Source of the DNA: Escherichia coli | GTDB taxonomy: Bacteria > Pseudomonadota > Gammaproteobacteria > Enterobacterales > Enterobacteriaceae | Strand: one strand, 5' to 3' | DNA length: 64,000 nucleotides | NCBI RefSeq assembly: GCF_003018255.1 | Contig: NZ_CP027440.1 | Shown: positions 46,783 through 50,858 of the stretch, one piece after another | Position numbering within the stretch: position 1 is the stretch's first letter | Layout: each line of letters begins with the position of its first letter | Translations under genes and position numbers: made by a program | The notes under the pieces: model-generated | Database searches by the model: none | Seen by the model: the letters and a program-made list of their open reading frames with translations, nothing else | What the model was told of the DNA's origin: nothing

Positions 46783-48807
<2,025 letters not shown>

Positions 48808-48812
48808 TCAAT

Positions 48813-48838
48813 GCTAAAAACCCCCGACAAGCGGGGGT
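48813..48838 (-). terminator. Intrinsic terminator after zipA
   Basis: Minus strand: CCCCCGC-TTGT-CGGGGG followed by TTTTT. Confidence 0.7.
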
Positions 48839-48868
48839 TCGAAGAGGAGTTAATTTGCCTTAAGTGTA

Positions 48869-49867
48869 TCAGGCGTTGGCGTCTTTGACTTCGCGGATGA
48901 TGTCCTGGTACTCGCGCAATTTCTGCGGAGTCATCATACGGCGCTGATCGTCAAGAACAACACCGCCCACTTCATCGGCAATATGCTGCGCAGATTGCAG
49001 CATCAGCTTGAAGTTCTGCAGCTCGTCACCGTAAGACGGTACCTGCATAAAGATAGTGACACCCGGAGTAGTGAAATCCTTCATTTCAGGATCAAAGGTT
49101 CCCGGTTTCACCATATTCGCCAGGCTAAATAACGCCGGGCCGCTGCCATCCGGGCTAAGATGACGATGGTAAATATTCATATCGCCAAAAATGAAGCCCG
49201 CTTGTTGAATGCTGTTAAGAAGCAGTTCACCGTTTAGCTCGCTACCGTGATGCGCCGCGACGTTCATGATAATCACCGCTTCTTTGCGCTTCGGTTTATC
49301 CATAACTGGAGCCGGTTCCGCTACAGGCTCAGGCTGTGGTGCCGCTACGGGTTCTGCAGGCTGGAAAGCCTGTTGTGCCGGTTGCGGTGCTGAATGCACT
49401 GGCTGCGGCGCTGGCGCGACCTGTGGCGAAACTGGCTGCTGCAACGGCTGTTCAGGCTGCGGCTGATAGGCAGGCTGCTGCACGGGTTGCTGCACCGGCT
49501 GCGCTGGACGCGGAGCATGTTGCGGCGGTACCTGCGCTTCAGGCGGCTGCTGGACCGGTTGACGCGGCTGCGCAGACGCATAAGGCGGTTGGTACTGGTG
49601 TTGCGGCGACGGACGAGCAGCCTCATGCTCCTGGGCGTTAGCCGGGGCATGATTCACGCGGTGAACTCGAACCTCACCAACGCCCTCATCATCTTCGACA
49701 TCCTCGTCATAAGAATCGTCGTCACGTTTTGACTTCATTCGTTTTAATGGCCGATCGCGGAACATAGAAGATCGTTCTTTACGGCTGGTCCAGAAACCAT
49801 GTACCAGTAAAGCGATTATGGCGATCGCGCCAACAATGATTAATATCAGACGCAAATCCTGCATCAT
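48869..49867 (-). CDS. zipA: Cell-division protein ZipA (FtsZ membrane anchor)
   Basis: N-terminal TM ([22 protein letters not shown]), charged region, long P/Q-rich linker, C-terminal FtsZ-binding domain; start taken at MMQDL rather than upstream ATG at 49918. Confidence 0.9.
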
Positions 49868-50096
49868 TATATTCTCTGTTGTTCTAACACCTTGCCACCA
49901 CGGCAAACATTTACTCACTAAGAGTATTTGCCGATTACCTCAAGTGCAAGTGCACTATTAACTTTCACAGCACAAAGATAGATGAAATCGTGCTTTTTGC
50001 TGTTTTTTCGAACATATCCTAACTGTCCATTGCGCAATTACCCGGTAAAATACGCAGAATTTTCCTGGGATTGGTCAAAAGGAGCTCATCCTGATT

Positions 50097-50858
50097 ATGG
50101 TTTCATCATTCACATCTGCCCCACGCAGCGGTTTTTACTATTTTGCGCAAGGCTGGAAGCTCGTCTCGCAACCTGGGATTCGGCGTTTCGTTATTTTACC
50201 GCTGCTGGTCAATATTTTGTTGATGGGGGGCGCATTCTGGTGGCTCTTTACGCAACTCGATGTCTGGATCCCGACTCTCATGAGTTATGTTCCGGACTGG
50301 TTACAATGGCTGAGCTATCTGTTGTGGCCTCTGGCTGTCATCTCTGTGCTGTTAGTGTTTGGCTATTTCTTCTCAACGATTGCTAACTGGATTGCCGCTC
50401 CGTTCAATGGTTTATTGGCTGAACAACTGGAAGCACGATTGACTGGCGCTACACCGCCAGATACCGGGATTTTCGGTATCATGAAAGATGTGCCGCGAAT
50501 CATGAAACGCGAATGGCAAAAATTTGCCTGGTATCTGCCGCGCGCAATTGTATTGCTAATTCTTTACTTCATCCCTGGTATTGGGCAAACCGTCGCGCCG
50601 GTACTGTGGTTCCTGTTTAGCGCCTGGATGTTAGCCATCCAGTATTGCGATTACCCCTTCGATAACCACAAAGTGCCGTTTAAAGAGATGCGCACCGCCC
50701 TGCGCACACGCAAAATCACCAATATGCAGTTTGGTGCTTTAACCAGCCTGTTTACGATGATCCCTCTGCTTAATCTGTTCATCATGCCCGTTGCCGTTTG
50801 TGGTGCGACGGCGATGTGGGTCGATTGCTATCGCGATAAACACGCGATGTGGCGGTAA
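50097..50858 (+). CDS. cysZ: Sulfate transporter CysZ
   Basis: 253-aa membrane ORF divergent from zipA, upstream of cysK. Confidence 0.92.

Follow-up and report, generated by a model that had tools for sequence, protein, structure and literature searches.

The zipA gene of Escherichia coli raises the question of whether its proline- and glutamine-rich (P/Q-rich) linker, which lies between a membrane anchor and an FtsZ-binding domain, keeps the same length from strain to strain and, if not, how new lengths arise. The original prediction, made from a stretch of 64,000 nucleotides (hereafter the window), held that this segment is prone to slippage and that the 332 codons counted from the start MMQDL may differ in other strains. 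We found that the linker length is indeed not invariant, as the ZipA proteins range from 295 to 349 aa among 5,426 complete E. coli genomes. The reading that we favour, with a probability of about 0.88, is that short repeats in the tether slip or recombine, and that this essential gene, whose tether tolerates changes in length, keeps the in-frame products.

The identity, frame and length of the gene (332 codons plus the stop) are agreed upon by the ORF list and by RefSeq; in strain 2014C-3338, which is 100% identical, the CDS is named zipA and has the same 999-nt extent (Table 1). The containing ORF spans 48869..49918 on the minus strand with the MMQDL start at 49867. The frame is open for 17 codons further upstream to a GTG (49868-49918, minus strand), giving a mechanical ORF of 349 aa, and the RefSeq start is MMQDL. 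The neighbouring genes in the window are ligA (46783..48798, minus strand) and cysZ (50097..50858, plus strand), and the cysZ-zipA-ligA synteny as well as the zipA annotation are the same in the matched RefSeq genomes, which identifies the gene as an ortholog. The window protein is the sequence that UniRef names ZIPA_SHIDS and the 328-aa protein of K-12 is ZIPA_ECOLI; relative to K-12, the window allele has four extra residues (PVQQ) and R120 in place of H, and is otherwise identical. In the 70-nt spacer between zipA and ligA (48799-48868), which has a fold of -19.2 kcal/mol (z -1.44), the segment 48816-48841 on the minus strand contains a G+C-rich hairpin, AACCCCCGCUUGUCGGGGGUU, with a run of U after it. 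It looks like an intrinsic terminator or attenuator; a consensus terminator scan did not list this hairpin.

The domain layout is that of a known ZipA. The C-terminal domain matches ZipA_C (Pfam PF04354) with E = 3.2e-46 and 156.8 bits against a cut-off of 23, and the PDB chains of the domain (1F46, 1F47 and 1F7W) align to aa 189-332, so that the solved domains begin at aa 189. These older entries contain the C-terminal domain only; the entry 9iue holds the full-length 328-aa ZipA in 18 chains. At the N-terminus, a hydrophobic stretch of 22 residues is present and the AF2 model places a helix at residues 2-29, as would be the case for a single transmembrane anchor with a predicted N-out bitopic topology. 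Composition windows of 20 aa reveal a charged region followed by the P/Q-rich linker between the anchor and the FtsZ-binding domain. The AF2 model has no secondary structure at residues 30-197 and its pLDDT in the linker is mostly below 50, although this model comes from a shallow alignment, with a mean pLDDT of 51 and poor overall quality, and supports disorder only weakly. The published domain map gives a transmembrane helix at 7-28, a charged region at 29-85, a 'PQ' region at 86-185 and the FtsZ-binding domain at 186-328 (PMC6904479). The same paper describes the PQ domain as a flexible tether that lacks structure (PMC6904479, citing Ohashi et al. 2002). The interval originally proposed for the low-complexity segment, 49266-49650, covers this linker but its limits are the ends of two of the ORFs that overlap it in other frames, and the P/Q domain proper occupies 49304-49612. 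The zipA gene is essential, and a 2020 paper in J. Bacteriol. reportedly dealt with the deletion of the ZipA and FtsA linkers.

Table 1. Features of zipA and of the repeats in its linker, in window coordinates.
Feature	Position	Strand	Basis or remark
zipA CDS	48869..49867	-	ORF list; RefSeq CDS in 2014C-3338
N-terminal transmembrane helix, aa 7-28	49784..49849	-	PMC6904479 limits; AF2 helix 2-29; length fixed in 31 variants
Charged region (basic, then acidic), aa 29-85	49613..49783	-	PMC6904479 limits; rare indels of 1-3 codons at protein level
P/Q-rich linker, aa 86-188, indel-prone	49304..49612	-	composition; AF2; 15/15 DNA-level indel types inside
ZipA_C FtsZ-binding domain, PF04354, aa 198-321	48905..49276	-	Pfam, structures; length invariant
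12-nt unit 1 CAGCCGGTGCAG (QPVQ)	49490..49501	-	retained in K-12 328-aa allele
12-nt unit 2 CAACCCGTGCAG (QPVQ)	49478..49489	-	lost in K-12-type, kept in GMM076 (unit 1 lost), doubled in 700481
12 nt missing from K-12-type zipA, leftmost placement	49484..49495	-	W3110 alignment; breakpoint analysis
GTGCAGCA, 8-nt repeats bounding the K-12-type 12-nt gap	49488-49495 and 49476-49483	-	
GCGCAGCCG, 9-nt repeat pair bounding the 69-nt deletion	copy 1 49565..49573, copy 2 49496..49504	-	
CAGCAGCC, three copies	49545..49552, 49473-49480, 49434-49441	-	
TGCAGCAGCC, pair bounding the 39-nt deletion (315 aa)	49434..49443 and 49473-49482	-	

The linker is of low complexity, as had been claimed, and the 43-residue peptide quoted in support of that claim corresponds to residues 103-145. 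Out of the 103 residues at aa 86-188, 32 are proline and 26 are glutamine (56%), and P, Q, A and V together account for 82%. The amino-acid entropy is 2.70 bits compared to 4.09 in the C-terminal domain, and the G+C content is 66.7% compared to 50.1% in the remaining gene. The description of the segment as 'imperfect CAG/CCG-rich repeats' holds to the extent that CAG (19) and CCG (16) are the commonest linker codons and that short direct repeats are present. No CAG/CCG tandem repeat exists, however, as TRF found no tandem array with a score of at least 30 in the region and hence no head-to-tail array of the VNTR kind; the tandem reading was therefore dropped in favour of dispersed direct repeats in a biased region. 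The sole tandem consists of two adjacent 12-nt PVQQ units (49478-49501) that are identical at 10/12 positions.

Scattered direct repeats of 6-11 nt are numerous in the linker. Counting in-frame repeat pairs of at least 6 nt, we found 67 in the linker, seven in an equal length of the C-terminal domain and 47.5 +/- 7.2 after codon shuffling. The corresponding counts for at least 7 nt are 35, one and 20.3 +/- 4.8 (z about 3), and for at least 8 nt they are 12, zero and 8.5 +/- 3.2, where the surplus is not significant. The repeat richness is mostly due to composition, with a modest extra at 6-7 nt. The spurious ORFs that had been pointed out in other frames are present as well, five of them (48-112 aa) overlapping the linker. 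They occur because off-frame stop codons are scarce there (1-6 per 128 codons); a Pfam search with the four largest (66-112 aa) gave no match, and these ORFs are to be disregarded.

The full zipA gene matched 5,425 of the 5,426 complete E. coli genomes with at least 95% identity. A single genome was without any zipA match, which is odd for an essential gene, and two zipA matches were on plasmid-typed records, their genomes having a copy on the chromosome as well. In an evenly spaced sample of 60 rows, the gene measured 999 nt in 25 cases, 987 nt in 34 and 888 nt in one. The gene of K-12 W3110 is 12 nt shorter than that of the window, with one PVQQ gone and the gap bounded by the 8-nt GTGCAGCA. 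A 200-nt linker probe centred on the site of this gap was then compared with the 5,426 complete genomes and matched 5,427 records: 2,384 with at least 95% identity, 3,042 with 90-95% (those with the 12-nt gap) and one with 80-90%, while 64 records had a coverage below 80% in any identity band. The 328-aa K-12 allele thus makes up about 56% of the genomes and the 332-aa window allele about 43%, the latter count (about 2,320) being 2,384 minus 64 on the assumption that the low-coverage hits fall in the high-identity band. Other lengths (295, 300, 303, 305, 308, 309, 310, 315, 318, 336 and 349 aa) occur in about 75 genomes (1.4%). We had considered that the low-coverage genomes might carry a divergent cryptic-clade zipA like the gene of protein P0046. 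This was rejected because the P0046 gene is only 90.6% identical and the full-gene matches throughout the genome collection are all at least 95% identical.

The rare alleles were found by junction-specific probes, by a search of a protein collection, by multi-junction queries and by fetching the loci. One representative of each junction group was fetched and its breakpoint located; the other members are assigned from identical BLAST rows. In a first multi-junction query (16.5 kb, 352 predicted deletion junctions), gapped matches to an A>C haplotype, an artefact, took up 205 of the 269 records, and a second query that was cleaned against this haplotype and the known variants was usable. The haplotype itself, an A>C change at gene position 320 seen in SCU-482 and CFSAN061770, is carried by about 205 complete genomes, among them a strain labelled ST69; it turns QQPPE in the linker into QPPPE and creates new short repeats.

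Together with the K-12-type 12-nt deletion, 14 other kinds of event give fifteen event types at the DNA level. The largest deletion, of 111 nt at CAGCAGCC (8 nt), yields 295 aa and was found in one complete genome (EM10-18-28), with the protein on 23 contigs under several accessions. The same 8-nt sequence bounds a 72/60-nt deletion giving 308 aa (three complete genomes; 371 contigs); copies 1 and 2 of CAGCAGCC flank the 72-nt deletion, and copies 1 and 3 the 111-nt one. A 69-nt deletion at GCGCAGCCG (9 nt) produces the 309-aa form, found in 22 complete genomes including O25:H4 and on 827 contigs of the protein collection; the same deletion on the short allele yields 305 aa in two complete genomes. 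An 84-nt deletion on the short allele at CGCAGCC (7 nt) yields 300 aa in 30 STEC-type genomes, one of which is labelled O103. The remaining larger deletions are of 87/75 nt at CAGC (4 nt; 303 aa, one complete genome), 54 nt at GCCGCAGCCTG (11 nt; 310 aa, one), 51 nt at CAGCCG (6 nt; 315 aa, two), 42 nt at CCGCCT (6 nt; 318 aa, four) and 39 nt at TGCAGCAGCC (10 nt; 315 aa, seven).

Gains of sequence were also found. A perfect tandem duplication of 51 nt at CAGCCG (6 nt) yields 349 aa in one complete genome and on about 24 contigs, with the complete genome (MS14386) resting on a 34-nt partial junction match. A start at the upstream GTG (332+17) had been considered for the 349-aa proteins and was rejected, since the alignment and the DNA both show a real 51-nt duplication. 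A third PVQQ unit (+12 nt) gives 336 aa in strain 700481, and a perfect 12-nt re-duplication on a K-12-like allele restores 332 aa in strain EcN_Sk, each in one complete genome. Finally, one genome (GMM076) has a second kind of 12-nt deletion at GCA (3 nt), in which unit 1 is gone and CAACCC is kept, giving 328 aa. The five records of the 2014C-3011 group were considered as indels and rejected, being normal 328-aa alleles with R102H.

Further E. coli ZipA lengths, namely 301, 304, 314, 351, 354, 355 and 375 aa, come from the wider protein collection and all differ within the linker; at the protein level, the 354-aa variants appear to have extra copies of the 13-aa unit that is deleted in the 39-nt event. 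Junctions deduced from protein variants alone are ambiguous, and three that were tried as probes on the complete genomes gave no match. In an alignment of 31 protein sequences, no indels were found in the transmembrane helix or in ZipA_C, and a few small ones (+E, +EDV and -DED) were found in the acidic region that precedes the linker. The alignment proposed as a check, which looked for indels confined to the linker, thus gave the expected result for all DNA-level events, but not for these few protein-level changes of 1-3 codons in the acidic region. A ZipA variant from a single ENA contig, P0028 (348 aa), has a 16-residue hydrophobic insertion SRRISLFFFVVLFSPP directly after the transmembrane helix; unlike every linker indel, it may be a frameshift or an assembly artefact.

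Each of the 15 DNA-level events has a length divisible by 3 nt and lies inside the linker, at gene positions of about 280-500. Their breakpoints fall in short identical sequences, as in a microhomology indel hot spot. The identity at the breakpoints is 3-11 nt in the 14 event types other than the 336-aa expansion and at least 6 nt in 10/14; in two deletions it is only 3-4 nt, and for these the case for a repeat-mediated route is weak. The 51-nt deletion and the 51-nt duplication are reciprocal events at the same CAGCCG repeats. The PVQQ unit occurs in one copy (K-12 type and GMM076), two copies (the window) or three copies (700481), and in this respect the locus shows the copy-number variation of a VNTR; such unit changes account for only 4/15 event types. 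No phase-variable switching was seen, as the events are all in frame and the fetched alleles are annotated as intact zipA. The zipA linker behaves like an indel hot spot between short direct repeats, and it is neither a VNTR array nor a phase-variable locus.

From what is known of short-repeat deletions and from the tether model, we infer a slippage step, purifying selection and near-neutral length. The codon bias towards CAG, CCG, CAA, CCT, CCA and GCG fills the P/Q tether with short in-frame direct repeats, and misalignment of these repeats during replication or repair would delete or duplicate the DNA between them, either by replication slippage or by RecA-independent recombination at microhomology. 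Because zipA is essential, selection would leave only the in-frame products, and many length variants would persist because the flexible tether appears to tolerate changes of tens of residues; some of the alleles may rise with successful clones. The term 'prone' refers here to standing variation, and E. coli has been sampled heavily but unevenly.

A different reading is that the 328/332 difference is one ancient polymorphism, in which the gap arose once in a K-12-like (A/B1-type) ancestor and was passed on by inheritance and homologous recombination, without the linker being especially mutable. Most of the fetched 328-aa alleles do fall in one flank clade, and the short allele varies little over the 200-nt probe (identity classes of 92.5-93.5% only), as one origin would predict. 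A K-12-type gap was found outside the main 328-aa clade in wlxctx60, the 69-nt deletion occurs in two flank clades (on the 309-aa and 305-aa backgrounds) and the 308-aa allele is at two positions in the flank tree, although this is a neighbour-joining tree of 4.5 kb, not a core-genome tree, and is not corrected for recombination, so that such positions may mimic recurrence. All three cases of scatter could also come from recombination between lineages, and the wlxctx60 gap could be a recombinant tract in keeping with a single origin. GMM076 is different. Its 4.5-kb flanks are identical to those of two 332-aa strains, yet the breakpoint of its 12-nt deletion differs from that of K-12, and it is the cleanest demonstration of recurrence. 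EcN_Sk with its re-duplication on a K-12-like allele, 700481 with its three units and at least ten more independent larger indels within the same 220 nt also speak against a single event. Most of the 56% of genomes with 328 aa may well go back to a single origin, but as an account of the whole locus this reading is refuted by GMM076, EcN_Sk and 700481; overall we regard this reading as possible but unlikely.

As for the direction of the main polymorphism, the two-unit form is not a fresh duplication because its units differ at two synonymous sites. The long-allele haplotypes are more diverse than the short ones in the 200-nt probe, and an outgroup zipA with 90.6% DNA identity has QPIQQPQPVQQP, in which the CAG-CAA-CC context is common with the long allele and absent in K-12. 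The comparison suggests that the two-unit 332-aa form is probably ancestral and the one-unit form of K-12 derived.

We consider it improbable that errors of sequencing or assembly in a G+C-rich repetitive tract produced the rare length variants. Assembly errors are known to arise at repeats, and six variant types are singletons among the complete genomes; individual singletons may be artefacts. The 309-aa, 308-aa and 300-aa alleles, in contrast, recur independently in the numbers of genomes and contigs given above, and even the 295-aa protein, a singleton among the complete genomes, was seen on 23 contigs from several accessions. The events are without exception multiples of 3 nt and the measured junctions are clean, a pattern that selection predicts and assembly error does not.

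Very doubtful is lineage-specific positive selection on linker length, in which the tether would tune the distance or dynamics between membrane and Z ring: the 309-aa (O25:H4) and 300-aa (30 STEC-type genomes) alleles are fixed in sizeable groups and related species differ (E. albertii 331 and 321 aa, E. marmotae 330), but this is the pattern expected from hitch-hiking in over-sampled pathogen clones, very different lengths coexist within clades and no class besides 328/332 is dominant. Still harder to credit is the specific form in which tethers shortened by 23-32 residues would have become fixed by selection in successful O25:H4 and STEC-type clones through an effect on Z-ring-to-membrane spacing or divisome dynamics, with the repeats as a built-in source of variants.

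The zipA linker can be compared with several known systems. The P/Q domain of K-12 ZipA (residues 86-185) agrees with that of the window in gene, location, composition and adjoining domains and shows no difference in kind; the window carries the two-unit allele like O157:H7 and S. dysenteriae. The domain is already known, and the 328 versus 332 difference can already be read from curated protein databases; among the papers that we could search, none described natural zipA indels or a length series. In E. coli, slipped mispairing at short direct repeats deletes or duplicates the DNA between them, as in the classical lacI deletion spectra. The zipA events share with these the breakpoint identity of 3-11 nt, the reciprocal events and sizes of 12-111 nt, but they are natural alleles filtered for frame in an essential gene rather than laboratory mutants. 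In VNTR or contingency loci, copy number varies among strains just as that of the 12-nt unit does (1, 2 or 3), whereas zipA is without a long array or frameshift on/off switching, its units are imperfect and its repeats are mostly dispersed. The disordered C-terminal linker of FtsZ and the proline-rich spacer of TonB are biased unstructured spacers that drift in length and sequence between conserved end domains. The zipA linker would be alike in behaviour; these are different proteins and no homology is claimed.

The ZipA length differences are genuine alleles and not annotation errors, and they should be neither split nor flagged in gene calling, pan-genome clustering or MLST-like schemes. 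The 309-aa and 300-aa alleles each mark a clonal group and could be of use for simple typing. The understanding of ZipA itself is unchanged, as this is the ordinary behaviour of a low-complexity linker and the allele catalogue is a useful by-product. The series of intact alleles, from -37 to +17 residues in the complete genomes and up to +43 in the protein collection, nevertheless amounts to a free deletion and insertion scan of the tether, and it argues that the exact length of the tether is not critical for division.
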